NCBI GenBank assembly: GCA_033471095.1
Contig: CP136752.1
Location: 1,220,217-1,236,585, forward strand
Source of the DNA: Candidatus Nitrosoabyssus spongiisocia
GTDB lineage: Archaea > Thermoproteota > Nitrososphaeria > Nitrososphaerales > Nitrosopumilaceae
Direction: 5' to 3'
DNA length: 16,369 nt
Below, piece by piece: positions 1 through 14,739 of the stretch. The position numbers were made by a program, and so were the translations under genes. Below the pieces are notes generated by a model. It was not told the origin of the DNA. It did no database searches and was given only the letters and a program-made list of their open reading frames with translations. Numbering within the stretch: the first letter of the stretch is position 1; each line of letters begins with the position of its first letter.

Positions 1-1311
1 AAAGATCAGCAACGATATACATACTTGAGATTAACTAGTGAAAAATACCCTCGTCTATTGGTTACTCGACGTACTAGGGATGGGAAATTTCTAGGTAATG
101 GGAAGGTATTCGGTCCATTTACCCATGGCAGCTCTAAACTATTATCCATCGGTACACTACGAAAATCATTTCAAATTCGAATTTGTAAAACATTGCCAAA
201 AAAAGCATGTTTAGAGTATCATTTGGGAAATTGTGAAGCCCCCTGTGAATTTAAAAATGCACAAAAAAACTATTCTCACCACATAGATGGTCTGAGCAGA
301 GTTCTCACAAATCCACAACATCTAGTCACATTCAAAAGTGTGCTGCGCTCTAAAATGGAGGTTGCCTCCAAACATCAACAATACGAGTATGCAAAAAATA
401 TTCGTGATACAATATATCGATTAGATAACTTGACAGCAGAGCAAAAAATGGAGACAATATCTGGTTCTGATGAAGAGTATTTTGGGATTGACATTGTTGA
501 TGATATTGCCACCATTATGACTTTTCGTCAAATTAGAGGTGTAATACAAGACAGTGATAGATTTTCATTTGAAATACTCGGTGATAATATGTTTTCGAAT
601 TTTCTTTATCAATATTATACCACTCGTAAAATTCCAAATACGATAATTATCAATGTTCCAATAATTAATAAAAAACTTTTAGAGGTGTTGTTGTCTAGTA
701 AATCTGATCGTGCTGTTAAAATCAATCTTCCTAGTGGTAAACAGAAAAAATTAATGAGTTTACTTTTGAAAAATATTCAAGTTTTTCAAACTGCAGGTAC
801 AGAACCGGGTCTTGTAGAGCTAAAACAACTATTACATATCACTAAAATTCCTAAGATAATAGAGTGCTTTGATATATCAAATCATGGCTCTGATTTTGCT
901 GTCGGTTCTATGTCTAGATTCTCCCAGGGTATTCCTGATAAATCAGGATATAGAAAGTTTAAGATAAAAACCATACGCGGCAGAGATGATTTTGCAATGA
1001 TTGGAGAGATTGTAAAACGACGATATACTAGACTAAAAAACCAGTCTTTGCCTTTACCTGATCTTATACTTGTTGATGGTGGCAAAGGCCAATTAAACGC
1101 AGCCTATGCTGAATTGAAAAAACTGAATCTATCTATTCCTTGCATATCGATTGCAAAGGAGAATGAGGAGATTTACACGGTTGGCAAATCTGAGCCATTA
1201 ATAATATCTAGGGATAAAAAATCTCTTCAAATTTTACAATTTGCAAGAGATGAATCTCATAGATTTGGTGTATCTTATAATCGACATGTGCAAAAAATGA
1301 ATATAATCTAA
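1..1311 (+). CDS. uvrC: Excinuclease ABC subunit C (UvrC), 5'-truncated by the window edge
   Basis: The frame is open from nt 1 (KDQQRYTYLRLTSEKYPRLLVTRR...), so the TTG at 25 is not the true start. UvrC-like motifs: FGPF...TLRKSFQIRICK, then the C-terminal endonuclease region LILVDGGKGQLNAA...ISIAKENEEIY...ARDESHRFGVSYNRH. It ends about 10 aa after the xHRF motif, so no (HhH)2 tail is visible. Confidence 0.85.
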   Translation, partial: KDQQRYTYLRLTSEKYPRLLVTRRTRDGKFLGNGKVFGPFTHGSSKLLSIGTLRKSFQIRICKTLPKKACLEYHLGNCEAPCEFKNAQKNYSHHIDGLSRVLTNPQHLVTFKSVLRSKMEVASKHQQYEYAKNIRDTIYRLDNLTAEQKMETISGSDEEYFGIDIVDDIATIMTFRQIRGVIQDSDRFSFEILGDNMFSNFLYQYYTTRKIPNTIIINVPIINKKLLEVLLSSKSDRAVKINLPSGKQKKLMSLLLKNIQVFQTAGTEPGLVELKQLLHITKIPKIIECFDISNHGSDFAVGSMSRFSQGIPDKSGYRKFKIKTIRGRDDFAMIGEIVKRRYTRLKNQSLPLPDLILVDGGKGQLNAAYAELKKLNLSIPCISIAKENEEIYTVGKSEPLIISRDKKSLQILQFARDESHRFGVSYNRHVQKMNII

Positions 1312-1851
1312 TTAACTTACAGTGATACTTCCAACCATCCATGGATGGACTTGGCAATAATAGTCAAAAGTTCCAGTGTTTGTAAATAATTGTGAAAATG
1401 TAGTACCGCTAGCAAAGATTGAACTATCCCAACCATTTGGATATGCCTCACCTACTAGATTTGGATTTTCTTGAAGATTACCTGTAGTTACTGTGTGTAC
1501 TGCGATATCATCGTTAGTCCAAGTTACAGTATCTCCCACATTGATTTTTGCGTTAGATGGTGAGTAACATATATCGTTTTGTACACAATCCGGTGATCCA
1601 GCTCCATTAGGTATTGAAATAAGAACTCTTTTTGGAGCAGTATCTTTTTTTATCTTTTCTTCCATCATCATTTTCTCCATCATTTTCTCCTCTTCCATCA
1701 TTTTCTCCTCTTCCATCATCATTCTATCCGTGTTTTTATTATAATCTGCTGAACTGTCATCTGCCAAGCCAGACCATACAACTGCTACACCTACACCGAC
1801 AAATACAATAGCGATTGTCCACAACATGGCAGCTTTATCTACTGAAGTCAT
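1312..1851 (-). CDS. Membrane-anchored plastocyanin-like type-1 (blue) copper protein
   Basis: N-terminal hydrophobic anchor AAMLWTIAIVFVGVGVAVVW. C-terminal cupredoxin signature: VGDTVTWTNDDIAVHTV (His ligand) and FDYYCQVHPWMVGSITV (Cys-x2-His-x2-Met). Its stop abuts the uvrC stop (TAATTA, 1309-1314). Confidence 0.85.
   Translation of the reverse strand: MTSVDKAAMLWTIAIVFVGVGVAVVWSGLADDSSADYNKNTDRMMMEEEKMMEEEKMMEKMMMEEKIKKDTAPKRVLISIPNGAGSPDCVQNDICYSPSNAKINVGDTVTWTNDDIAVHTVTTGNLQENPNLVGEAYPNGWDSSIFASGTTFSQLFTNTGTFDYYCQVHPWMVGSITVS
1654..1722 (-). repeat. Met/Glu/Lys low-complexity linker (MMMEEEKMMEEEKMMEKMMMEEK) inside the cupredoxin gene
   Basis: Directly visible reiteration of catcattttctcctcttc-type units. 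It lies between the TM anchor and the cupredoxin domain. Confidence 0.8.
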
Positions 1852-1981
1852 TATAATTCAAACAAAATCCACTTACTTATAAATATATTTGATATCTCTG
1901 ATGAATGATTATTCTAATTAATGAATAAAATACTGTGTAGATTAGATGACTAAATTTATTAAATAAACAATTGAAAAATTA
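1852..1981. promoter_or_regulatory. Divergent intergenic region likely holding both promoters (cupredoxin gene leftward, LLM oxidoreductase rightward)
   Basis: TATA-like ttataaatat (1877-1886) is about 30 nt from the minus-strand ATG at 1851. TATA-like tttattaaat (1954-1963) is about 24 nt from the ATG at 1982. This spacing is typical of archaeal leaderless or short-leader transcripts. TATA-like strings are common in AT-rich DNA, so this call is weak. Confidence 0.4.
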
Positions 1982-3073
1982 ATGTTGAATAAATTAAAAT
2001 TTGGAATCCAAAATGGGTTAAATGTAGCCAGAGCTGGATATTCTATTGATCAAATACTTACTGCGTGTATGTTGGCAGACAAAACTGGTTATGATTCTAT
2101 TTTTTACATGGATCATACAAACGTACCACAATGGAAAAACGCAACTGTACTTGATCCCTGGGTTATGTTATCTGCAATTGCCGCAGTTACACAAAATGTT
2201 GAACTTGGAACATGTGTGACAGATGCCATTCGTCGTCACCCATCAAACATATCTCTTGCAGCAATTACCCTTGATCGTGTCTCCAAGGGACGAGCTATAC
2301 TTGGTATAGGTGCAGGAGAAGCACAAAACCTAAAAGAATTTTGCATACCTTTTGAAACACCTGTAAGTAAATGGGAAGAGCAAATTCAAGTTATTAAAAA
2401 ATTATACACATCAAACCCAGATAATGTGGTAGATTTTGATGGAAAATATTATCAACTAAAAGGAGCTTGTCTGCAAGCTGCCCCTATTCGTAAACCATAT
2501 CCACCAATATACATGGCAGCTGGAGGTTCGCGAACATTGAGATTAACTGGTAAATATGGTAATGGTTGGCTTCCAATTGGATATACCCCAGAGTTGTTTG
2601 AAGATCACGCAAATAAGATTAAAGAGTCAATGGATTCAAACAATCGATCTCAGGAGGAAAAGGATAATTTCCAATATGCTCTTGACATTGATGTTTATTT
2701 TTCCGAAGATGCCGAAGAGTCTTGGGCAAAGATGAAAGAGGCAATAAAAGTAAGCCTTTTCAAACCCGAAGTATTACGTGTACATAATCTTAAAGAAATT
2801 CAAGGTTTTGATTTCAAAAAATACTTTACAGAATACTCTATGTCAAATCAAGAGTGGATTGTAAAGATGCGAGAGGCTGCCACCACAATTCCAGATAATA
2901 TAGCACGTTCATCTATCGGAGTCGGTACGGTTGACGATATAATACCCGTATTTGAGAAATTCATGAACAAAGGCGTAAATCACTTTGTTATTAGATTTTG
3001 GGGCAAGAATTATTTTGGCAGTATTGATAAATTTGCCAGTAGCGTAATGCCACGTTTAAAAGAACTTGTCTAA
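1982..3073 (+). CDS. Luciferase-like monooxygenase (LLM) family, probable F420-dependent oxidoreductase
   Basis: 363 aa. It has an LLM-type TIM-barrel pattern: KFGIQ...GYDSIFYMDH, ...RAILGIGAGEAQNLKEFCIPFE...WEEQIQVIKKLY, ...PPIYMAAGGSRTLRLTGKYGNGWLP. Cofactor and substrate are not determinable from sequence. Confidence 0.8.
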   Translation: MLNKLKFGIQNGLNVARAGYSIDQILTACMLADKTGYDSIFYMDHTNVPQWKNATVLDPWVMLSAIAAVTQNVELGTCVTDAIRRHPSNISLAAITLDRVSKGRAILGIGAGEAQNLKEFCIPFETPVSKWEEQIQVIKKLYTSNPDNVVDFDGKYYQLKGACLQAAPIRKPYPPIYMAAGGSRTLRLTGKYGNGWLPIGYTPELFEDHANKIKESMDSNNRSQEEKDNFQYALDIDVYFSEDAEESWAKMKEAIKVSLFKPEVLRVHNLKEIQGFDFKKYFTEYSMSNQEWIVKMREAATTIPDNIARSSIGVGTVDDIIPVFEKFMNKGVNHFVIRFWGKNYFGSIDKFASSVMPRLKELV

Positions 3074-3103
3074 TTTTTAATTATTTTAATAATACTAAAG
3101 TTA

Positions 3104-3172: not shown

Positions 3173-3367
3173 TTATACCACAAATGTGTTCACAAATTGT
3201 AACGAATCAATAATGTATTTCCTTGTTAATGGCAGTCCTGATACAATCTTAGAATTATATTTTTTGCTTTTCATAACACTGCAACAGTTAGGCACACTAG
3301 GGGACTCGCTCAGATGCCCATTTACGATTTTATACAAATCTCTTGCGTGTATTTCTATTTGTGACAC
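3173..3367 (-). CDS. Hypothetical small protein (64 aa, GTG start)
   Basis: ORF only. Its composition looks more protein-like than the overlapping plus-strand ORF 3186-3407. I recognised no family. Confidence 0.25.
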   Translation of the reverse strand: MSQIEIHARDLYKIVNGHLSESPSVPNCCSVMKSKKYNSKIVSGLPLTRKYIIDSLQFVNTFVV

Positions 3368-3408: not shown

Positions 3409-3928
3409 TTGTCAAACTTTAAAATTATTGGTATATCAATTATGGCCATCATCATAAGTTTGGGATTTGTGGCTTTGACCACACTATCTATTTCAAATAT
3501 TCCCAGTATTAATGAATATGTTGGTCTTTATGACAAAAGTGTCGAATTATTAAACAAGATGAAAGAAGTACAGAAACTAAACAATGAATTGATACAGTTA
3601 GAATCTTACGCAAATGCTGCAACCTTAGAACGTGATAAACTTTGAGACAGTTCAATAAGATATATGCTGAAATCACCACAGAGTATAATGAAGAGTATAT
3701 AGTCTATTAAACACTCTTTTGACAAGATACTCTACAAATGATCAATGGGATCGTTATGATGAAATTTTACAGTATATGACCGTATTAGAAAATAATTATT
3801 TAAAAGATACCAATGCTCATAATGCTCATTTGAGTAATTATTTTGATGATCTTTTAACATAACGTTCAACATATAATAACAAATACGGTGATTTGGCAAA
3901 TAAGATATCTGATATTATTGACAAGTAG
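3409..3928 (+). pseudogene. Fragmented gene for an N-terminally anchored coiled-coil protein
   Basis: ORF 3409-3645 encodes a TM helix (IIGISIMAIIISLGFVALTTL) plus a coiled-coil-like segment. Coding-like sequence resumes in another frame (STNDQWDRYDEILQYMTVLENNYLKDTNAHNAHLSNYFDDLLT, from 3731). An in-frame TAA at 3860-3862 interrupts it, and it continues RSTYNNKYGDLANKISDIIDK to the TAG at 3926-3928. Confidence 0.35.
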
Positions 3929-3988
3929 TGAATAAAATGTATTTGAGATTCTTTTTTATACACTGGATAAAAACGGAGACAAAATAAC

Positions 3989-4180
3989 ATGGATGTTTTA
4001 TTGATTGTATATCTCACGATTAATATTTTGATTGCGTATATCAATCAAGCAGATCTATCTTTTACACATTATCTTGGCAGATATGGATTTTATATTCTTC
4101 TAGCAGGATTATTAATTTATGGTTCATATATGTTGATTACAAGAAATAGTGATAAATCCAAGAAGAATCAAAAGAAATAA
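3989..4180 (+). CDS. Hypothetical small membrane protein (63 aa)
   Basis: Two hydrophobic segments (VLLIVYLTINILIAYI and FYILLAGLLIYGSYMLI) and a Lys-rich tail. ORF evidence only. Confidence 0.4.
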   Translation: MDVLLIVYLTINILIAYINQADLSFTHYLGRYGFYILLAGLLIYGSYMLITRNSDKSKKNQKK

Positions 4181-4209
4181 AATTAAAATAGAGATTATAG
4201 TATCGCTCC

Positions 4210-4239
4210 ATGAATAGCACCCGAATTTGCAATAGAGCC
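4210..4239 (-). repeat. Copy 2 of the ~30-nt motif (subtype 2, inverted); reverse complement ggctctattgcaaattcgggtgctattcat
   Basis: Matches the reverse complement of copy 4 at 23/25 core positions. It lies 30 nt after the stop of ORF 3989-4180. Confidence 0.75.
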
Positions 4240-4462
4240 TTTACTATGATTATTAACAATTAACTCATTGCCACTAGTACCAAGTTTATTTGGTGTGGAT
4301 TTTACAGATATGTCACATAAATAGTCGGCAAATATCTCAGATTGAGTTTTTAAATTAATAGTATCAGATTCGTCATATTGCATATATCAAATATTTAATT
4401 TTTTTCCATCACATCATTGTGGTCAAAATTAGATTTGAGTGAAATGATTTTATGTAAAGAAT

Positions 4463-5383
4463 TTAAGATACGAGTTTGACAGATTTAATTTTTTTATGTA
4501 GATAAACAAATGCCAATGTTGGTAGACCAACATAAATTAGCAAGTTGATAGCAATTACAAGTAATCCCAAAGCCAACACACTATTCTCCGAGTCATCTAC
4601 CATCGTCATTATAGATACACTAGAGAGTAGAGGATATAGAATAGTCTGAATTATTTCACGCAGTAGAGGGTTTTCACGCTCAGCATCTGCAATTACAGGT
4701 GAAAAGGTGTAATAGATTTGGTTGAATGATGTTATGAAGGATATTCCAGGTAGACTAGTCATTAAAGTTGTATCACGTATCTCTCTGAGCATTTGTACTT
4801 GTTGTGAAAGCTCAGTTCCATATACTGCTGTTGCGATTAGACAACCACCTTTACCAGGAGAAGTGGTAGTAGAGTTATCATCCTTTATGGTTTTATCATC
4901 CTTTATGGTTTTATCATCCTTTATGGTTTTATCATCCTTTATGGTTTTATCGTCCATCATAATATCATCATCCTTTATGGTTTTATCGTCCATCATAATA
5001 TCATCATCCTTTATGGTTTTATCATCCTTTATGGTATTATCGTCCATTATGGTACCGGTAGATGTAACAGGTAATGTAGAATCAAAAGTGATGGAACCGG
5101 TGGGTTGAGAAATATCTACTAATTTTTGTTCACTTGTAAAGAAAGTATTAGAGTATACGCTAGCCTTTACAAATACAAAGCGTTCATCAGAAGACACTAG
5201 ACCCAAATAGACGACTCTATCAGAGTAGGGCTGTGTTAGGGAGAGTTGAGTTTTAATTACTCCTAGTTTGGAACTACTAATAGTAACAAAAGCATCATCA
5301 GATGATGGGCTAGCAATAATTTCAACTAGTTTTTTATCATCAGCTGACTTCCCAAGATACTTTGTGAATAATAGCCTCTGCAA
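4463..5383 (-). CDS. CFI-box-CTERM-type membrane-anchor protein with an acidic (DDKTIK)n linker
   Basis: C-terminal block GGCLIATAVYGTELSQQVQMLREIRDTTLM...FNQIYYTFSPVIADAERENPLLREII. It is followed by hydrophobic segments (VLALGLLVIAINLLIYVGLPTLAFVYL) and a basic tail. This matches my memory of the CFIATAAYGS...VQ.LR.FRD CFI-box C-terminal domain. There is no signal peptide. The called TTG start sits directly after a stop codon and overlaps the upstream ORF by 44 nt. Confidence 0.7.
   Translation of the reverse strand: MQRLLFTKYLGKSADDKKLVEIIASPSSDDAFVTISSSKLGVIKTQLSLTQPYSDRVVYLGLVSSDERFVFVKASVYSNTFFTSEQKLVDISQPTGSITFDSTLPVTSTGTIMDDNTIKDDKTIKDDDIMMDDKTIKDDDIMMDDKTIKDDKTIKDDKTIKDDKTIKDDNSTTTSPGKGGCLIATAVYGTELSQQVQMLREIRDTTLMTSLPGISFITSFNQIYYTFSPVIADAERENPLLREIIQTILYPLLSSVSIMTMVDDSENSVLALGLLVIAINLLIYVGLPTLAFVYLHKKIKSVKLVS
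4878..5057 (-). repeat. Ten tandem 18-nt units (tcatcctttatggtttta, variant tcgtccatcataatatca) encoding DDKTIK / DDDIMM
   Basis: Counted directly. Four perfect units run from 4878 to 4949. Interleaved variants follow to 5057. The array is in frame (6 aa per unit). Confidence 0.9.
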
Positions 5384-8300
5384 TTATTGGGGCTTGACCA
5401 CCAGTGAATATACGACCTGCGCCGCCGCCTCCTGAGCTACTGCCATCACCACTACTAGTAAATGGAATAGGTGCAGGTACTTGAGTACTAGTGGCACCGG
5501 TGGAAGATGTTAGAGCATAGGTGGATAGGTGAGTGGTGTAAATTGTTACATGAGTGTTGTCATCTACAAAACATTCGTTTGTGGAAGTAGTGGTTAAAAG
5601 AGTATTAATTTCTGCGATATTACTAGTACCACAGGATGACATCTGGGTTGGTGTAGAGCCAATAGTATTTACATAATATGCATTATAATTATTTCCACCT
5701 TGATTTTCAAATACAATAGATACAACTGTATCACCTAGGTTGAGATCAATTGTTACATCTCCCAAAGTTATAGCTGTAATCGTTACATGACTAGTAGTAG
5801 TCTGACCTGCAGTTGTAGATGGTACAGTAATAGTAGCAGTACGTGGTGCAAGGAATTGCGAATCCCAAGTACCATCATGAGTAATAATAGTACTAGTAGG
5901 TATCATGACTGTAATGTCATTAGTAGATACAAGTTTGGCAGTTAATCCTGCAGTGATATTAGTAGTGTTTAAAGTAGTAGCGATATAATTGATAGTAACA
6001 TTTTGATGTTCAGGTGTAACAATTAATGGTACGTCTATATGAAGAAGTGTAGGAGACACCATCTGATCGCTTGATGTAACGTTACTTTGGACGTTTAAGC
6101 TATTTTCTGTATTAAATATACCATTATTTACAGCGTCTAAAACAGAATCTGTAGGAAAATGTACATTAGCTCCAGAACTATGTTGTAGATTTGTGTTAAC
6201 CACATGTTCAGATATATTGTTACTAAAAGTAAAAACCAAAGTAGGATTGTTTGTAGAATCAACATTAGTAGTAGTGAATGCTCCTGAAGTTATACCCAAT
6301 CGTGATGAATTAGGTATGATTACATTTTCACTAAATGTAACAGTTAGAGTATGTGCTAAAGTGTCATATATTGGAGTATTAACGACTGTTGGTCGTATAG
6401 TGTCACGAACAACTATAATTCTATTTACTTGAACGGCATTATTTCCTGCCGAATCAACAGAGTTGTATGTGATGGTGTAATTGCCTACAGTATCTGTATC
6501 TACAGTGTCACCACCAATGACGATAGGAGAGTCATCATCAGTAGTGGCGTTTTGCTCATTATATGTGGAGTTTATGTTTAGTGTTATGGTACTACTGCCA
6601 TTCAGTGTGATTACTGGGGGAATAGTGTCACTAACAACTATAGTTCTATTCACTTGGGTGGCATTATTTCCTGCTGAATCAACAGAGTCATAGGTGACGG
6701 TATAATTTCCCACGAGAGATGAATTTACAGTGTCACCACCAATGACGATAGGAGAGTCATCATCAGTAGTGGCGTTTTGCTCATTATATGTAGAGTTTAT
6801 GTTTAGTGTTATGGTACTATTACCATTCAGTGTGATTACTGGGGGAATAGTGTCACTAACAATTACAAGCCTATTCACTTGGGTGGCATTATTTCCTGCT
6901 GAATCAACAGAGTCATAGGTGACGGTATAATTTCCCACGAGAGATGAATTTACAGTGTCACCACTAATTGTTACTGGAGAGTTATCATCAGTAGTGGCGT
7001 TTTGCTCATTATATGTAGCGCCAACAAATAGTGTTATGGTACTATTGCCATTCAGTGTGATTACTGGGGGAATAGTGTCACTAACAATTACAAGCCTATT
7101 CACTTGGGTGGCATTATTTCCTGCTGAATCAACAGAGTCATAGGTGACGGTATAATTTCCCACGAGAGATGAATTTACAGTGTCACCACCAATTGTTACT
7201 GGAGAGCCATCATCAGTAGTGGCGTTTTGCTCAGAGTAGGATGAGCCAAGTTCTACATAAACAGTAGCATTACCAATTAGTGTGATTACTGGGGGAGTAT
7301 CATCTGGTGCATCAGAAATTATTACAGTTCTATCAACTTGGGTGGCATTATTTCCTGCTGAATCAACAGAGTTGTATGTGACGGTATAATTTCCCTTGAG
7401 AGATGAATTTACAGTGTCACCACCAATTGTTACTGGAGAGTTATCATCAGTAGTGGCGTTTTGCTCATTATATGTAGAGCCAACAAATAGTGTTATGGTA
7501 CTATTGCCATTCAGTGTGATTACTGGGGGAATAGTGTCACTAACAATTACAAGCCTATTCACTTGGGTGGCATTATTTCCTGCTGAATCAACAGAGTCAT
7601 AGGTGACGGTATAATTTCCCACGAGAGATGAATTTACAGTGTCACCACCAATTGTTACTGGAGAGCCATCATCAGTAGTGGCGTTTTGCTCAGAGTAGGA
7701 TGAGCCAAGTTCTACATAAACGACATTATTACCATTCAGTGTGATTACTGGGGGAGTAGTATCTGAAATGTTGTTAATTACAGGTTGATTCACAAAGTTT
7801 TCTAGTGTTATGTCAGTATTTTGAGTAGAGTTTATTCCACCACTAGTTTTAGTATATGAGATAATTATGGTTTCATTTGCCAAGAGATTTCTGCTTAAAT
7901 TCAGAGTAATTGAAGAGGAGTTTGATGTTATACTATCTATTGTAGCAGATGTTCCATTAAGAGCAAAGTCGGTTATAGTGGCCGAGTAAGTAATGTTTTC
8001 ATTAAAAGTAATTATAATGTTATCACCTTGTGTATTGGTAATAGCAGAAGTTATCACTACACTTCTATCTTCAGGTGTAGATATAGTAAAGAAAGTAGAA
8101 GGAGAGTTTTGATTTGCATACTCTGTTGCAATCCAGTCTGCAGAGCGAGCAGTAGATGATAGTCGGAATTCATCTAATTTGCCATTAAAGAATTGATTAA
8201 ATACCCAATTGATTTTTCCAATATAGTTTGTTGTTCTATTCACATCATTAGATGTATGCACAGCACCACTAGTAATTGAGGTACCATTGTGATAAATAGT

Positions 8301-8582
8301 TGCTGTACCTGATGATTCATGTACAACTGTAAAGTATGCCCATTGACCTTTCTGCAAAACACCACTAATTGTGACATTCTGAGATACGTTACCTCTTAGC
8401 ATATCATATGTCAAATCCGTGTTAGCATAAGGGGAATAATCCAATATAGGGCTTTGAAATACAATATTGTCTTGTGCCAGACCATTGCCAAAATCAACGA
8501 ATCTAGCAAAACCTCTATTGCCACCAATATTTGCCCATACCGAGATGGTAAAGTCTGTATTGTAGAATAGACTACCTGCCAA
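5340..8582 (-). CDS. Large surface protein segment: LamG (concanavalin-like) domain + Ig-like repeat + 6x DUF5011/HYR-like Ig repeats + Thr/Ser/Asn-rich beta-rich C-terminal half
   Basis: LamG motifs: FTISVWAN, GQWAYFTVVHESSGTATIYHNG, FNGKLDEFRLSSTARSADWIATEYANQ. Six 75-78 aa repeats follow the pattern PPVITLNG..Y.EQNATTDD.SPVTIGGDTVNSS.VGNYTVTYDSVDSAGNNATQV. N-x-S/T sequons are very dense. The called TTG start is mid-domain, and the frame stays open upstream to 8759. No signal peptide or anchor is present. Confidence 0.8.
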   Translation of the reverse strand: MAGSLFYNTDFTISVWANIGGNRGFARFVDFGNGLAQDNIVFQSPILDYSPYANTDLTYDMLRGNVSQNVTISGVLQKGQWAYFTVVHESSGTATIYHNGTSITSGAVHTSNDVNRTTNYIGKINWVFNQFFNGKLDEFRLSSTARSADWIATEYANQNSPSTFFTISTPEDRSVVITSAITNTQGDNIIITFNENITYSATITDFALNGTSATIDSITSNSSSITLNLSRNLLANETIIISYTKTSGGINSTQNTDITLENFVNQPVINNISDTTPPVITLNGNNVVYVELGSSYSEQNATTDDGSPVTIGGDTVNSSLVGNYTVTYDSVDSAGNNATQVNRLVIVSDTIPPVITLNGNSTITLFVGSTYNEQNATTDDNSPVTIGGDTVNSSLKGNYTVTYNSVDSAGNNATQVDRTVIISDAPDDTPPVITLIGNATVYVELGSSYSEQNATTDDGSPVTIGGDTVNSSLVGNYTVTYDSVDSAGNNATQVNRLVIVSDTIPPVITLNGNSTITLFVGATYNEQNATTDDNSPVTISGDTVNSSLVGNYTVTYDSVDSAGNNATQVNRLVIVSDTIPPVITLNGNSTITLNINSTYNEQNATTDDDSPIVIGGDTVNSSLVGNYTVTYDSVDSAGNNATQVNRTIVVSDTIPPVITLNGSSTITLNINSTYNEQNATTDDDSPIVIGGDTVDTDTVGNYTITYNSVDSAGNNAVQVNRIIVVRDTIRPTVVNTPIYDTLAHTLTVTFSENVIIPNSSRLGITSGAFTTTNVDSTNNPTLVFTFSNNISEHVVNTNLQHSSGANVHFPTDSVLDAVNNGIFNTENSLNVQSNVTSSDQMVSPTLLHIDVPLIVTPEHQNVTINYIATTLNTTNITAGLTAKLVSTNDITVMIPTSTIITHDGTWDSQFLAPRTATITVPSTTAGQTTTSHVTITAITLGDVTIDLNLGDTVVSIVFENQGGNNYNAYYVNTIGSTPTQMSSCGTSNIAEINTLLTTTSTNECFVDDNTHVTIYTTHLSTYALTSSTGATSTQVPAPIPFTSSGDGSSSGGGGAGRIFTGGQAPIIAEAIIHKVSWEVS
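6408..7766 (-). repeat. Six tandem coding repeats, period 225 nt (one of 234), DUF5011-like Ig domains
   Basis: The copies fall into subtypes a,b,a,b,c,c. Subtype a reads VYVELGSSYSEQ..DDGSP. Subtype b reads ITLFVG.TYNEQ..DDNSP. Subtype c reads ITLNINSTYNEQ..DDDSPIVIGG. This indicates a higher-order duplication. Confidence 0.9.
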
Positions 8583-8759
8583 GTCTGGAAGATCAAGATA
8601 ATTTACGTAGTCTGGGTATAATCCATAAAAGTTTAATCCATTACCAATTTGTGCAGATACTGAATTATTAGGGCTAAAGGCAAAACGGTTTGGAGTCTGT
8701 GGTGTTGCATGACAATCATTCCCTGATGAGTCTAGGGTAGAGTTTGCAGTAAAAGTGGA
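8583..8759 (-). other. 177-nt nominally intergenic stretch that is stop-free, in frame with both neighbouring ORFs, and encodes the N-terminal strands of the downstream LamG domain
   Basis: My translation: STFTANSTLDSSGNDCHATPQTPNRFAFSPNNSVSAQIGNGLNFYGLYPDYVNYLDLPDL. It runs straight into (L)AGSLFYNTDFTISVW. There is no ATG, GTG or TTG within these 59 codons. Confidence 0.65.
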
Positions 8760-11162
8760 TTAATCCATGTGATAAATTATTTCATAGTCTGAATCCCAAA
8801 CATTATCATGTATAATAGTTGCCGCTAATGAGACATTATAATACATGTAGAGTATGGTATCACTGGTATTGCTCAAAGTAGGTAGACGAACCCAAGCTAC
8901 TAGAGTACCGGTAGTAGCATTATTAGTAAATGACTCAATTTCATGCTGTAATATAGTAAATCCATCACTGCTAGTGAAAATAATATCGGCTCCGTTAGGC
9001 AGAACAGCTGAATTGTTCAAAGCAGAATCAGAGATACTTACTAGAAGGGTAAAGTTTTGAAGAGTTGTAGTTATTTGGTTACTGTTAATAGTAATTTTCT
9101 GTCTAGTATCCCACAAGGAAGGTAAATCAAAAAATTGAACATTATTAGTGATTGGTTGATTTGTAAAGTTTGCAAGTGATAAATCATTCACGTTTGTAAT
9201 ATTACTAGTTGTTTGATTATATGATACTGTTAATGGCAATACAGGTGGAATGTTAGAGTCTAGTGTTAGATTGATGGCAGTGTCATTATGTCTAGTTATA
9301 CTAGTTGTAGCAATACCTGAAATACTTACTGCAAAGTCAGTTGGAGAAGTGGTATTGGTAAGAGTGACTACTTTATCAAAGTTGACAGTTATGTTGTCAC
9401 CTCGCTGGTTTGTGTAAGCGTTAACAAAGATTGGAGGTGGTAGAACATTATTAGTGATTGGTTGATTTGTAAAGTTTGCAAGTGATAAATTATTTACGTT
9501 TGTAATACTACTAGTTGTTTGATTATATGATACTGTTAATGGTAATACAGGTGGAATGTTAGAGTCTAGTGTTAGATTGATGGCAGTGTCATTATGTCTA
9601 GTTATACTAGTTGTAGCAATACCTGAAATACTTACTGCAAAGTCAGTTGGAGAAGTGGTATTGGTAAGAGTGACTACTTTATCAAAGTTGACAGTTATGT
9701 TGTCACCTCGCTGGTTTGTGTAAGCGTTAACAAAGATTGGGGGTGGTAGAACATTATTAGTGATTGGTTGATTTGTAAAGTTTGCAAGTGATAAATTATT
9801 TACGTTTGTAATACTACTAGTTGTTTGATTATATGATACTGTTAATGGTAATACAGGTGGAATGTTAGAGTCTAGTGTTAGATTGATGGCAGTGTCATTA
9901 TGTCTAGTTATACTAGTTGTAGCAATACCTGAAATATTTACTGCAAAGTCAGTTAGAGAAGTGGTATTGGTAAGAGTGACTACTTTATCAAAGTTGACAG
10001 TTATGTTGTCACCTCGCTGGTTTGTGTAAGCGTTAACAAAGATTGGAGGTGGTAGAACATTATTAGTGATTGGTTGATTTGTAAAGTTTGCAAGTGATAA
10101 ATTATTTACGTTTGTAATACTACTAGTTGTTTGATTATATGATACTGTTAATGGTAATACAGGTGGAATGTTAGAGTCTAGTGTTAGATTGATGGCAGTG
10201 TCATTATGTCTAGTTATACTAGTTGTAGCAATACCTAAAATATTTACTGCAAAGTCAGTTGGAGAAGCGGTATTGGTAAGAGTGACTACTTTATCAAAGT
10301 TGACAGTAATATTGTCACCTTGCTGGTTTGTATAAGCACTAACAAAAATTGGAGGTGGTAGAACATTATTAGTGATTGGTTGATTCACAAAGTTTTCTAG
10401 TGTTATGTCTGTATTTTGAGTAGAGTTTATTCCACCACTAGTTTTAGTATATGAGATAGTGATGATTTCATTTGCCAAGAGATTTCCTCTTAAATTCAGA
10501 GTAATTGAAGAGGAGTTTGATGTTATACTATCTATTGTAGCAGATGTACCAGTAAGAGTAAAGTCAGTAGTAGGAATAACCGAATAGATAATGTTTTCAC
10601 TAAAAGTAATTATAATGTTATCACCTTGTGTGTTGGTAATAGCAAAAGTTATCGCTACACTTCTATCTTCAGGTGCAGATATAGTAAAGAAAGTAGAAGG
10701 AGAGTTTTGATTTGCATACTCTGTTGCAATCCAGTCTGCAGAGCGAGCAGTAGATGATAGTCGGAATTCATCGAATTTGCCATCAAAGTAGGAATCAGTT
10801 CCCCAATTGGATCTTCCGATATAGTTTGATGCTCTATTCACATCAAGAGATGTATGTACGGTATCACTAGTAATTGAGGCGCCATTTTTGTAGATAGTTG
10901 CTGTACCTGATGATTCATGTACAACTGTAAAGTGTGCCCATTGACCTGTCTGCAAAACGCCTCTAACTGCGATACCCAGAGAGTAGGCACCCTGTAGCAT
11001 ATTATATCTTAAACCATGGATAAGTTCATAGTAAGCAAATAGAATATTGTCTTGTCTCTCACCATTGCCAAAATCAACGATTCTAGCCTGACTTTTAATG
11101 GCATCAATATTTGCCCATGCCGAGATGGTAAAGTCTGTATTGTGGAATAGACTACCTTCCAA
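8760..11162 (-). CDS. Large surface protein segment: LamG domain + Ig-like repeat + 4x 102-aa Ig-like (SwmB/Big_5-like) repeats + C-terminal DUF2341 domain
   Basis: The LamG region is similar to that of the downstream ORF. DUF2341-like block: LWDTRQKITINSNQITTTLQNFTLLVSISD...NGADIIFTSSDGFTILQHEIESF...LVAWVRLPTLSNTSDTILYMYYN...VWDSDYEIIYHMD-stop. The called TTG start is mid-LamG, and the frame is open upstream to 11339. No signal peptide is present. Confidence 0.8.
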   Translation of the reverse strand: MEGSLFHNTDFTISAWANIDAIKSQARIVDFGNGERQDNILFAYYELIHGLRYNMLQGAYSLGIAVRGVLQTGQWAHFTVVHESSGTATIYKNGASITSDTVHTSLDVNRASNYIGRSNWGTDSYFDGKFDEFRLSSTARSADWIATEYANQNSPSTFFTISAPEDRSVAITFAITNTQGDNIIITFSENIIYSVIPTTDFTLTGTSATIDSITSNSSSITLNLRGNLLANEIITISYTKTSGGINSTQNTDITLENFVNQPITNNVLPPPIFVSAYTNQQGDNITVNFDKVVTLTNTASPTDFAVNILGIATTSITRHNDTAINLTLDSNIPPVLPLTVSYNQTTSSITNVNNLSLANFTNQPITNNVLPPPIFVNAYTNQRGDNITVNFDKVVTLTNTTSLTDFAVNISGIATTSITRHNDTAINLTLDSNIPPVLPLTVSYNQTTSSITNVNNLSLANFTNQPITNNVLPPPIFVNAYTNQRGDNITVNFDKVVTLTNTTSPTDFAVSISGIATTSITRHNDTAINLTLDSNIPPVLPLTVSYNQTTSSITNVNNLSLANFTNQPITNNVLPPPIFVNAYTNQRGDNITVNFDKVVTLTNTTSPTDFAVSISGIATTSITRHNDTAINLTLDSNIPPVLPLTVSYNQTTSNITNVNDLSLANFTNQPITNNVQFFDLPSLWDTRQKITINSNQITTTLQNFTLLVSISDSALNNSAVLPNGADIIFTSSDGFTILQHEIESFTNNATTGTLVAWVRLPTLSNTSDTILYMYYNVSLAATIIHDNVWDSDYEIIYHMD
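9137..10360 (-). repeat. Four tandem near-identical coding repeats, period 306 nt (102 aa)
   Basis: The landmark gaacattattagtgattggttgat recurs at 9137, 9443, 9749, 10055 and 10361. Unit: NQPITNNVLPPPIFVNAYTNQRGDNITVNFDKVVTLTNTTSPTDFAVSISGIATTSITRHNDTAINLTLDSNIPPVLPLTVSYNQTTSSITNVNNLSLANFT. Confidence 0.9.
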
Positions 11163-11339
11163 GTCTGGAAGATCAAGATAATCTCCGTTGTTGTTGTCTA
11201 CTCCATCAAAGTTTAGTCCATTACCAATTTGTGCAGATACTAAATCATTAGATTCAAAGGGAGTAGAGCCTGTAGATAGTGGTGTTGCATGACAATCATT
11301 CCCTGATGAGTCTAGGGTAGAGTTTGCAGTAAAAGTGGA
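11163..11339 (-). other. Second 177-nt stop-free in-frame stretch encoding LamG N-terminal strands
   Basis: My translation: STFTANSTLDSSGNDCHATPLSTGSTPFESNDLVSAQIGNGLNFDGVDNNNGDYLDLPDL, then (L)EGSLFHNTDFTISAW. It has the same length and frame as 8583-8759. The ends are identical, and the centre is diverged but still open. Confidence 0.65.
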
Positions 11340-12748
11340 TTAATCCATGTGATAAATTATTTCATAGTCTGAATCCCAAACATTATCATGTATAATAGTT
11401 GCCGCTAATGAGACATTATAATACATGTAGAGTATGGTATCACTGGTATTGCTCAAAGTAGGTAGACGAACCCAAGCTACTAGAGTACCGGTAGTAGCAT
11501 TATTAGTAAATGACTCAATTTCATGCTGTAATATAGTAAATCCATCACTGCTAGTGAAAATAATATCATCTCCGTTAGGCAGAACAGACTGAATTGTTCA
11601 AAGCAGAATCAGAGATACTTACTAGAAGGGTAAAGTTTTGAAGAGTTGTAGTTATTTGGTTACTGTTAATAGTAATTTTCTGTCTAGTATCCCACAAGGA
11701 AGGTAAATCAAAAAATTGAACATTATTAGTGATTGGTTGATTTGTAAAGTTTGCAAGTGATAAATCATTCACGTTTGTAATATTACTAGTTGTTTGATTA
11801 TATGATAGTGTTAATGGTAATGCAGGTAGAATGTTAGAGTCTAGTGTTAGATTGATTGCAGTGTCATTATGTCTAGTAATACTAGTTGTGGCAATACCTA
11901 AAATATTTACTGCAAAGTCAGTTGGAGAAGTGGTATTGGTAAGAGTGATTTCTCTATCAAAGTTGACAATTATGCTGTCACCTCGCTGGTTTGTATAGGC
12001 GTTAACAAAGATTGGATATGATGGAACATTATTAGTGATTGGTTGATTTGTAAAGTTTGCAAGTGATAAAGTAGGATCTACACTATCAGTGATATTTGTG
12101 CCTGTATCGTTGTATGATAAAAGTGGAGAGTCGTCAAAAGATAGGGTAGAGTTTAGTGAAAGAATTATAGAAGTTGCATTATTACTAGTTATACTATTCA
12201 CAGAAGTGGATGAATTAATTATAGCAAAGTCGCTAAGGAATGTAGTACTACCTACTGTAATATTTTTAGAAAATACAACAATAATATTGCTACCAGTTGT
12301 ATCAGTATACACTCTACTAGGAGGATTCAGAGCTGACATTATTTGTTACACTAGAAATATTAATGGAACCAGAAGGGTGACCATCAATTCTTATCAGAGT
12401 CTGAATAGATGTATAAGATAGACTAAGACTAGTAGTAGGAGTTATGGGCGGAGATACAACTATGGCGATAGTATTAGCGTCAACATTATAAAAATCAGTT
12501 ATGTTATAGTTGGCAGGATTAAACACAAAAGATGAATTTAAATTAGTCCGAGTAGCTAAATCCGTGTATGTGATATTGGAACGAATCGGCACAGATATAG
12601 TTATCGTATCACCATCAGTATTAGTAGATGCATTTATAGGTGCATATTGTCCAAAAGCAGAATCTAGTGGAAAGAGCAAAGTGGCAGAGAGAACGATAAT
12701 AGCAGTTAAAGAGAGAGTCATCACATATGAATGATAGACATTATGCAA
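11340..12748 (-). pseudogene. First module of the surface-protein locus (signal peptide + Ig-like repeats + DUF2341), disrupted by two frameshifts
   Basis: Signal-peptide-like start MTLSLTAIIVLSATLLFPLDSAFGQ; the ATG at 12721 is likelier than the TTG at 12748. The frame changes near 12325-12345 (...ISSVTNNV | NPPSRVYTDTTGSNIIVVF). It changes again at an extra A at 11588: agaacagActgaattg versus agaacagctgaattg in the paralog at 9001-9015. After that, the DUF2341 sequence continues open in the locus frame to the TAA at 11340-11342. Confidence 0.65.
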
Positions 12749-13886: not shown

Positions 13887-14739
13887 ACTAGACTGAATCT
13901 GTGTAAATACTGTAATTCAGGTAATATCAAAAAGGATGGTATGAGGAACAGCAAACAAGGAAAAATACAACGATTCAAATGTTTAGATTATAATAAACGC
14001 TTTACATCAAATTTTGAATTTGAGGGTAAACAATCTGATTCAAAAATAATTACAGGTGCATTACAAATGTATTATTCAGGTATGTCAGTTGGAGATATTT
14101 CAACACATTATGAGTTTGATACTGATGTGAATCGTTCTACTATGAATCGCTGGATTGCCAAATACCCTGTAATGTTAACTAGATACCTAGATGAAATCAT
14201 ACCACGTGTTGGCAATTGGATTCGTGCTGATAAAGTATGAATAAAGATGTCAGGTAAACCAAAATATCTATTTGCACCTATGAATAATGACACTCGTTTT
14301 GGTTTAGTTAAAGACATGGCCGATACTAAATTTCAGCACAATGCAGATTATTTGTTGAAACTGACTAAATTGACTACTGGGAATAAAACACCCAAGCATT
14401 TTATCACAGATGGATTACCATCATAGGGTAAATCGTCAAGAAGAGTATTTGGCAGAGAAACACAATATGATAAAAATATACACTTGAAAGGTGAGATGAA
14501 TAACAATATGATGGAACGTCTAAATGGTGAGATTCGTGATTGTAGGAAAGTGTTTAGAGGATTGAAGAGAAGATAGTCTGATTATTAATGGTGTGACAGT
14601 GTATTACAATTGTGCCAAAAAGTATAGTGGTATTGACAATAAGAGACCATCTAAGAGAGCAAAGATAACTGTCAAGGGTCGTAACAAGTGGAATACTTTG
14701 ATACAGAGTGCAAGTTTGCATGATTATGATACTATCTAA
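13887..14739 (+). pseudogene. Degraded DDE transposase (IS remnant; archaeal zinc-ribbon + DDE type, IS6/IS240-like by motif; family uncertain)
   Basis: Open from 13887 with no start codon: CKYCNSGNIKKDG...GKIQRFKCLDYNKRF, where the second zinc pair reads C-x2-Y. WIRADKV-TGA-IKMSGKPKYLFA sits where ADE.W.K.kGk.yLfa is expected (stop at 14238-14240). ITDGLPS-TAG-GKSSRRVFG sits where DGL.sY is expected. NNNMMERLNGEIRDCRKVFRGLKRR is followed by a stop and frameshift near 14570. The tail reads IINGVTVYYNCAKKYSGIDNKRPSKRAKITVKGRNKWNTLIQSA to the TAA at 14737-14739. Confidence 0.7.

Follow-up and report, generated by a model that had tools for sequence, protein, structure and literature searches.

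Does the stop codon inside a large surface-protein gene of Candidatus Nitrosoabyssus spongiisocia exist in the organism, or only in its deposited genome? The question is raised by a 16,369-nt stretch of contig CP136752.1 (assembly GCA_033471095.1, positions 1,220,217 to 1,236,585; hereafter the window), in which an in-frame minus-strand TAA at 8760-8762 separates a DUF2341 domain from a LamG domain and is followed by 59 open codons (8583-8759, minus strand) that appear as intergenic DNA. The first-pass annotation of this DNA offered three explanations, namely a very recent nonsense mutation, stop-codon readthrough or recoding, and an unconventional two-polypeptide design. Our analysis favours another answer. 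With a probability of about 0.9, the TAA is an error that entered the consensus of a nanopore-only assembly at a methylated GATC, and the true codon is CAA (Gln), as found in relatives.

Reading of the minus strand confirmed the layout described by the first-pass annotation. The TAA closes the open reading frame (ORF) 8760-11162, whose end reads ...VWDSDYEIIYHMD (...IIYHMD before the stop). The next 59 in-frame codons, from 8759 down to 8583, contain neither a stop nor ATG, GTG or TTG and run directly into the called start of ORF 5340-8582, a TTG at 8580-8582; their translation is STFTANSTLDSSGNDCHATP...YLDLPDL. The chance of 59 open codons, calculated from stop frequency for the gene's other two frames, was P = 0.0007 and P = 0.16. 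The Cys of the DSSGNDCHATP motif in this stretch goes back to GATC>GATT at 8714, by which CGT (Arg) became TGT (Cys). The same Arg-to-Cys change occurs at plus-strand 11294, and one syntenic haplotype, L051 (described below), has CGT (Arg) at both positions. The homologues P0002, P0006 and P0007 carry DSSGNDRHATP, whereas the Cys form had been quoted as part of the canonical motif.

In the gene's second LamG domain, the 59 codons account for the N-terminal strands. Pfam searches located DUF2341 (PF10102) ahead of this TAA, and of a second one described below, and Laminin_G_3 (PF13385) behind each, with SWM-like repeats and six PF16403 Ig-like repeats elsewhere in the gene. PF10102 scored 26.7-27.2 bits against a gathering cut-off of 23.4 (residues 48-106 of a junction construct and 723-781 of ORF 8760-11162), and PF13385 scored 62-82 bits; no Pfam family matched the small N-terminal ORFs or the C-terminal ORF. 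The proposed domain check was thus borne out for the order of the two domains, but the Laminin_G_3 hidden Markov model match starts only ~6 residues ahead of the TTG, so Pfam alone leaves the 59 codons uncovered. Support for this stretch came from two other sources. When 53 homologues were aligned, the positions most strongly conserved in the N-terminal part of LamG (D136, S/T138, G162, I164, F170 and G172 of the junction construct) fell within the 59 codons, as did the family motifs D-S-T-S-N..G-T and G.IG...FDG. An AlphaFold2 model of the exact post-TAA translation (window 8043-8759, minus strand, 239 aa) had a predicted local distance difference test score (pLDDT) of 83 and a predicted template modelling score (pTM) of 0.82, placed four beta-strands within residues 19-57 and superposed, over 200-234 alignment columns, on PDB structures of concanavalin A (ConA)-like/LamG jelly rolls. 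A product initiated at the TTG would, according to this model, be a truncated LamG domain deprived of the four strands and of a signal peptide, as the first-pass annotation had anticipated. These data indicate that the open stretch 8583-8759 is inherited coding sequence rather than a product of chance, that the 177 nt encode the missing start of the LamG domain and that both ORFs are parts of one gene.

Relatives were then compared at the junction codon. Ca. Nitrosoabyssus spongiisocia itself supplies the closest proteins, and its paralogues read through the junction with Gln (HMD-Q-STF or HMN-Q-STF). In the 53 homologues the junction column holds Asp 17 times, Asn 12, Glu 12 and Gln 8, and no homologue has a gene boundary at this position. 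Ten syntenic loci (L050-L059) were retrieved from an independent assembly, ERZ20067936 of the European Nucleotide Archive (ENA), via the flanking luciferase-like protein. They have the gene order UvrA, UvrB, UvrC, copper-binding (plastocyanin-like) protein, luciferase-like protein and giant minus-strand gene in common with the window, at 96-99% identity, and in all ten the giant gene is a single ORF (2027, 2036, 2328, 2669, 2670, 2670, 2712, 2787, 2787 and 2823 aa). DUF2341 and LamG are contiguous in one polypeptide, as the first-pass annotation had stated for this class, in the 53 homologues and the ten syntenic intact ORFs; in the window as deposited this contiguity is interrupted by TAA. 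The junction reads GAT-CAA-TCC at 15/15 DUF2341|LamG junctions of the ten haplotypes and at 3/3 in a further contig, L060, and GAT-TAA-TCC at 2/2 junctions in the window. Thus, the suggested comparison of orthologous codons gave CAA at 18/18 junctions on related contigs, and the nearest relatives carry Gln where a Glu codon (GAA) had been assumed to be ancestral. Plus-strand position 8762 is A in the window and G in all related haplotypes, and the CAA version generates a GATC site (ggaTCaa). A scan of a genome collection for related loci returned only distant DUF2341-LamG loci (30-49% identity) and no close relatives, and the junction, with its variable base set to Y, had no match in a scan of Joint Genome Institute (JGI) metagenomes.

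The TAA at 8760-8762 is not the only break in this gene. An identical HMD-TAA-STFTANSTLDSSGNDCHATP junction, overlooked by the first-pass annotation, lies at 11340-11342 (minus strand) in the upstream module, where the stop results from GATC>GATT at plus-strand 11342. It is likewise followed by 59 open codons devoid of stops and starts (11163-11339, minus strand), which encode the N-terminal strands of the first LamG domain and lead to a TTG at 11160-11162. Both copies of the junction sit in a tandem module of ~2.58 kb, and ~360 nt surrounding the two TAAs are identical between the module copies; ORF 8760-11162 begins in the middle of a LamG domain because the junction occurs twice. Three single-base insertions, all on the gene's minus strand and likewise overlooked before, add frameshifts. 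One lies within AGCT at 11588 (plus-strand CAGCTG to CAGACTG) and ends ORF 11575-12339 as ...NNSVCSA*. Another lies beside AGCT at 12335 (AGCTAC to AGCTGAC) and splits the signal-peptide ORF 12317-12748 from ORF 11575-12339. The third, again beside AGCT (AGCTAC to AGCTGAC), lies at 5346 and creates a false stop at 5340, which detaches the C-terminal ORF 4463-5383. A coding region of ~8.3 kb is consequently broken by two TAAs and three 1-nt frameshifts.

We reverted plus-strand 8762 and 11342 from A to G and deleted the three inserted bases. These five single-base edits restored an uninterrupted frame of 2761 codons on the minus strand (12748 to 4463), i.e. a single giant gene for a secreted surface protein. 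Its product is colinear with the 2670-aa L051 protein, with 97.9% identity over 2037 aa. The product consists, from the N-terminus on, of a signal peptide, SWM-like repeats of ~100 aa, a first DUF2341-LamG pair, repeats, a second DUF2341-LamG pair, six Ig-like repeats (PF16403), a tract of DDKTIKDD repeats and a hydrophobic segment at the C-terminus. No further stop was present in the 2761 codons of the repaired frame, and across them no lesion was found outside the two motifs GATC and AGCT. With a guanine plus cytosine (GC) content of 33%, the absence of any other stop argues against real decay.

The differences between the window and the haplotypes are specific for these motifs and run in one direction. 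Relative to L051, the window has 165 substitutions, 9 of which lie in GATC sites against 1.5 expected (Poisson P = 2e-5). All nine (9/9) change the C of GATC to T, on either strand (P ~2e-12 for that specific type), and they affect 9 of the 29 aligned GATC sites. Within the gene, some of the GATC>GATT changes are silent and others alter residues. In the reverse direction, where the window keeps GATC and the haplotype departs from it, 0/20 sites were found against L051 and at most 3 against any other haplotype, none of them C>T. As a control, the ten haplotypes were compared with one another: of their 5968 substitutions only 34 lie in GATC, as many as expected from the portion of the sequence that the motif occupies, and only 4 are C>T; natural hypermutability of GATC was accordingly rejected, being absent among these ten references. 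The haplotypes' private differences included none at the two motifs, barring one artefact at an alignment edge. Two of the window's changes, a non-coding GATC>GATT at 3467 (plus strand) that is private to the window and a second non-coding one at 4006, lie outside the gene, so the effect follows the motif and not the gene. Besides repeat-register shifts and a 2-nt intergenic deletion at 3228, the indels relative to L051 consist of the three 1-nt insertions, each at AGCT (chance ~1.6e-6), and the extra base is absent from 10/10 haplotypes at 5346 and 12335 and from all 4 that align at 11588. Together, GATC and AGCT make up ~1.6% of the sequence, yet they hold all five gene-breaking lesions. As an observation apart, the window also has a private C>T at 2937 (plus strand; GGTCGAC to GGTTGAC) within the luciferase-like gene, outside GATC and AGCT.

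The origin of the deposited sequence is compatible with such errors. Proteins encoded in the window match exactly WOV92853.1 (254-aa ORF), WOV92848.1 (luciferase-like) and WOV92860.1 (PNPOx) of the metagenome-assembled genome (MAG) AB1(1) of 1,455,463 bp. According to the methods passages of its source paper, this nanopore-only MAG was assembled from Oxford Nanopore Technologies (ONT) R10.4 reads, basecalled with Guppy 6.1.5 in high-accuracy (HAC) mode, with Flye and polished with Medaka, and these passages do not mention short-read polishing (PMC11525543). Methylated motifs reported for Nitrosopumilaceae on the basis of REBASE are AGCT (N4-methylcytosine, m4C) and GATC (N6-methyladenine, m6A), in Nitrosoarchaeum sp. 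BD3, Ca. Nitrosomarinus catalina SPOT01 (>99% of sites) and Thaumarchaeota archaeon MY3 (PMC11033074). By analogy with these family members, both motifs are presumably methylated in Ca. Nitrosoabyssus spongiisocia too. Lohde et al. (2024, Genome Res) reported that methylation-induced errors of the R10.4 generation are overwhelmingly C/T or A/G confusions with the minimal context RA/TY, that only part of the ambiguous positions turn into consensus errors and that Medaka leaves them (PMC11610573). Chiou et al. (2023, Commun Biol) similarly found that modification-mediated systematic errors persist after Medaka (PMC10687267). GATC>GATT falls under TY and, read on the complementary strand, under RA. 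We propose that the true GAT-CAA (Asp-Gln) entered the consensus as GAT-TAA through an error at a methylated GATC, which most likely arose at basecalling or Medaka polishing. The same process would have struck the paralogous counterpart of this junction, 2.58 kb upstream, as well as seven further GATC sites of the window, and a related error mode would have inserted single bases at three AGCT sites; through these five lesions, a single gene of ~2,750 codons that encodes a giant secreted surface protein would appear as six ORFs.

Several points weigh against the reading of the TAA as a consensus error. The error is deduced from the comparison of haplotypes rather than from read data. The comparison haplotypes differ by 1.2-4% from the window and may derive from another host individual, which leaves a small probability to a real strain-specific change, and their assembly, ERZ20067936, is taken as PacBio HiFi from its hifiasm-style contig names only. 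Only 9 of the 29 GATC sites, about a third, are hit. In the housekeeping part of the window (1-3100), 0/10 GATC sites are affected, and the affected sites are confined to 3464-11706, which comprises an AT-rich spacer and the repetitive hypervariable gene. The unaffected site at 2111 (ACATGGATCA) has 10 nt of context in common with the affected junction, so context alone does not decide which sites fail; we found no extended context by which affected GATC sites could be told from unaffected ones. Heterogeneity among strains and mis-mapped repeats in the hypervariable gene may play a part. In addition, three paralogues from the same assembly, known from their proteins, read HMD-Q, possibly with an intact GATC.

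Could the lesions instead be genuine? The gene might be a real pseudogene in which two CAA>TAA nonsense mutations, spread by gene conversion, and three frameshifts mark decay as in host-restricted symbionts. Five disruptions in one gene of the deposited sequence agree with this view, as does the location of both TAAs in a 360-nt tract identical between modules, which is compatible with gene conversion. Many members of the family in the same genome are fragmentary, and Ca. Nitrosoabyssus spongiisocia is a sponge symbiont with a small genome (PMC11525543). However, decay would have to place all five lesions on two 4-nt motifs, with the GATC changes uniformly C>T and none reversed, and repeat the identical change in non-coding DNA at 3467 and 4006. 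It would also leave the 2761 codons free of any additional stop in spite of five inactivating lesions, while the ten co-occurring haplotypes are intact and show no GATC hypermutability. In addition, m6A at GATC is not known to drive C>T changes, and no natural process is known to insert single bases at AGCT. We therefore regard a real pseudogene as very unlikely. Were the lesions nevertheless real in AB1(1), for which there is only a slim chance, the giant adhesin-like protein would be made as fragments or by readthrough of the TAAs, or the gene would only recently have been inactivated, and an unknown mutational process targeting methylated GATC and AGCT would have to be invoked.

The other two proposals take the TAA as functional. 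If it were a real stop read through or decoded as Gln in programmed recoding, a full-length protein would be produced, and in keeping with this, conserved elements of the fold are encoded by the 59 downstream codons and the 1080-codon ORF behind them, both of which are intact, and the same TAA stands at two junctions. Yet the TAA is not conserved, given the CAA codons on all related contigs, no recoding signal is needed, and readthrough would leave the three frameshifts unrescued. The TAA moreover ends both directly read ORFs of the gene and truncates its frameshifted pieces, and no reassignment of TAA is known in archaea. An alternative genetic code with TAA as a sense codon was likewise rejected, since TAA terminates the gene's own ORFs and relatives have CAA. 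Recoding is thus extremely improbable, and we give as little credence to a design of two separate genes in which the downstream one initiates at the TTG at 8580-8582. The ORF finder does return this TTG start, and PGAP annotated similar TTG-started LamG fragments elsewhere in the genome, for example P0008, which starts MASSLFYNTDFT. Such a product would, however, lack the four predicted jelly-roll strands and a signal peptide, and the intact haplotypes read straight through a position at which homologues show no boundary. All three rivals are contradicted because the motif pattern is one-directional, the stop is unconserved and the haplotypes are intact. The first-pass annotation was accordingly right about the anatomy, one gene with 177 coding nucleotides at the junction, but none of its three explanations is the best one; the GATC>GATT evidence favours a consensus error, which it had named among the refuting outcomes.

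An insertion sequence (IS)/transposase-like remnant at 13941-14426 (plus strand) consists of a 99-aa and a 59-aa ORF, neither with a Pfam match. The same two gene calls recur in both haplotype loci that reach the remnant (L050 19786-20271 and L053 19785-20270). The remnant is split equally in the haplotypes, so it serves as an internal control in which a real disruption is shared, in contrast to the lesions of the giant gene.

Other members of the family bear the same marks. The paralogue P0010 breaks off after ...YHMD, while ...NSVCST closes P0001 and P0008, the same frameshift product as that of ORF 11575-12339, which suggests that motif errors have falsely split several family members genome-wide. 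Paralogues with HMN-Q retain the Gln; Asn is encoded there by AAT or AAC, and either codon precludes a GATC.

Across the ten co-occurring haplotypes, the length of the giant gene varies from 2027 to 2823 aa, with one or two DUF2341-LamG modules and varying numbers of 306-nt and 225-nt repeats, and its product has the appearance of an adhesin-like surface protein that varies between strains of a sponge symbiont. The DDKTIKDD/DDDIMMDD repeat tract at 4722-5108 (minus strand, in ORF 4463-5383) differs from that of L051 by one 18-nt unit. It is followed by a GGCLIATAVYGTELSQQVQMLREIRD motif and the C-terminal hydrophobic segment, which had no Pfam match, and the tract, motif and hydrophobic segment may form a sorting or anchor region. 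Two of the haplotypes, L055 and L056, lie on the same contig of ERZ20067936, ptg000012l (at ~0.6 Mb and ~2.1 Mb), where this single-copy locus occurs twice in slightly different versions; the contig measures 2.15 Mb against a genome of ~1.45 Mb and probably joins two strain haplotypes end to end. In L060 (ENA ERZ25072740, a 24-kb contig), which has three CAA junctions, the DUF2341/LamG/Ig region is distributed over many small ORFs, and this fragmentation could reflect an error-prone assembly or a truly degraded paralogous locus.

The pattern in the window resembles the ONT methylation errors described previously (PMC11610573, PMC10687267) in that pyrimidine-pyrimidine C/T confusions (G/A on the other strand) occur beside a methylated base, recur at a subset of sites of a motif, survive Medaka and are found in R10.4-era data basecalled with models untrained on the modifications of the organism. 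It differs in its motifs, which are the archaeal GATC (m6A) and AGCT (m4C), in the 1-nt insertions rather than substitutions at AGCT, and in the clustering of the errors in a repetitive strain-variable gene within a metagenome, where they were recognized from haplotypes and not from reads. The same two motifs are the targets of M.Nca01I (AGCT, m4C) and M.Nca01II (GATC, m6A) of Ca. Nitrosomarinus catalina SPOT01 and of M.NspBD3I/II (PMC11033074), which is evidence at the level of the family Nitrosopumilaceae. As for the protein, it has the domain order of other secreted archaeal and bacterial DUF2341-LamG (PF10102 and PF13385) surface proteins and their conserved junction, W/Y-H-L/M-x-x...D-S-T/S-S/G-N..G-T, contiguous in the 53 homologues. 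Compared with that class, it is much larger (~2,000-2,800 aa), carries the unit once or twice among ~100-aa SWM-like and Ig-like repeats and varies in module and repeat number between co-existing strains.

The published closed genome of Ca. Nitrosoabyssus spongiisocia thus appears to carry GATC>GATT errors and 1-nt insertions at AGCT that create false stops and frameshifts, with at least five such motif errors in the giant gene and like signatures in the paralogues P0010, P0001 and P0008. Such errors call for caution with the number of genes, with pseudogene calls and with surface-protein families that look "fragmented" in this genome, and equally with other archaeal MAGs built from nanopore reads alone whose lineages methylate GATC and AGCT. 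GATY and AGCT contexts should be excluded before in-frame stops are scanned for. For the organism itself, nothing at the locus points to recoding or split-protein biology, and the gene is an ordinary, very large and strain-variable member of the DUF2341-LamG class.

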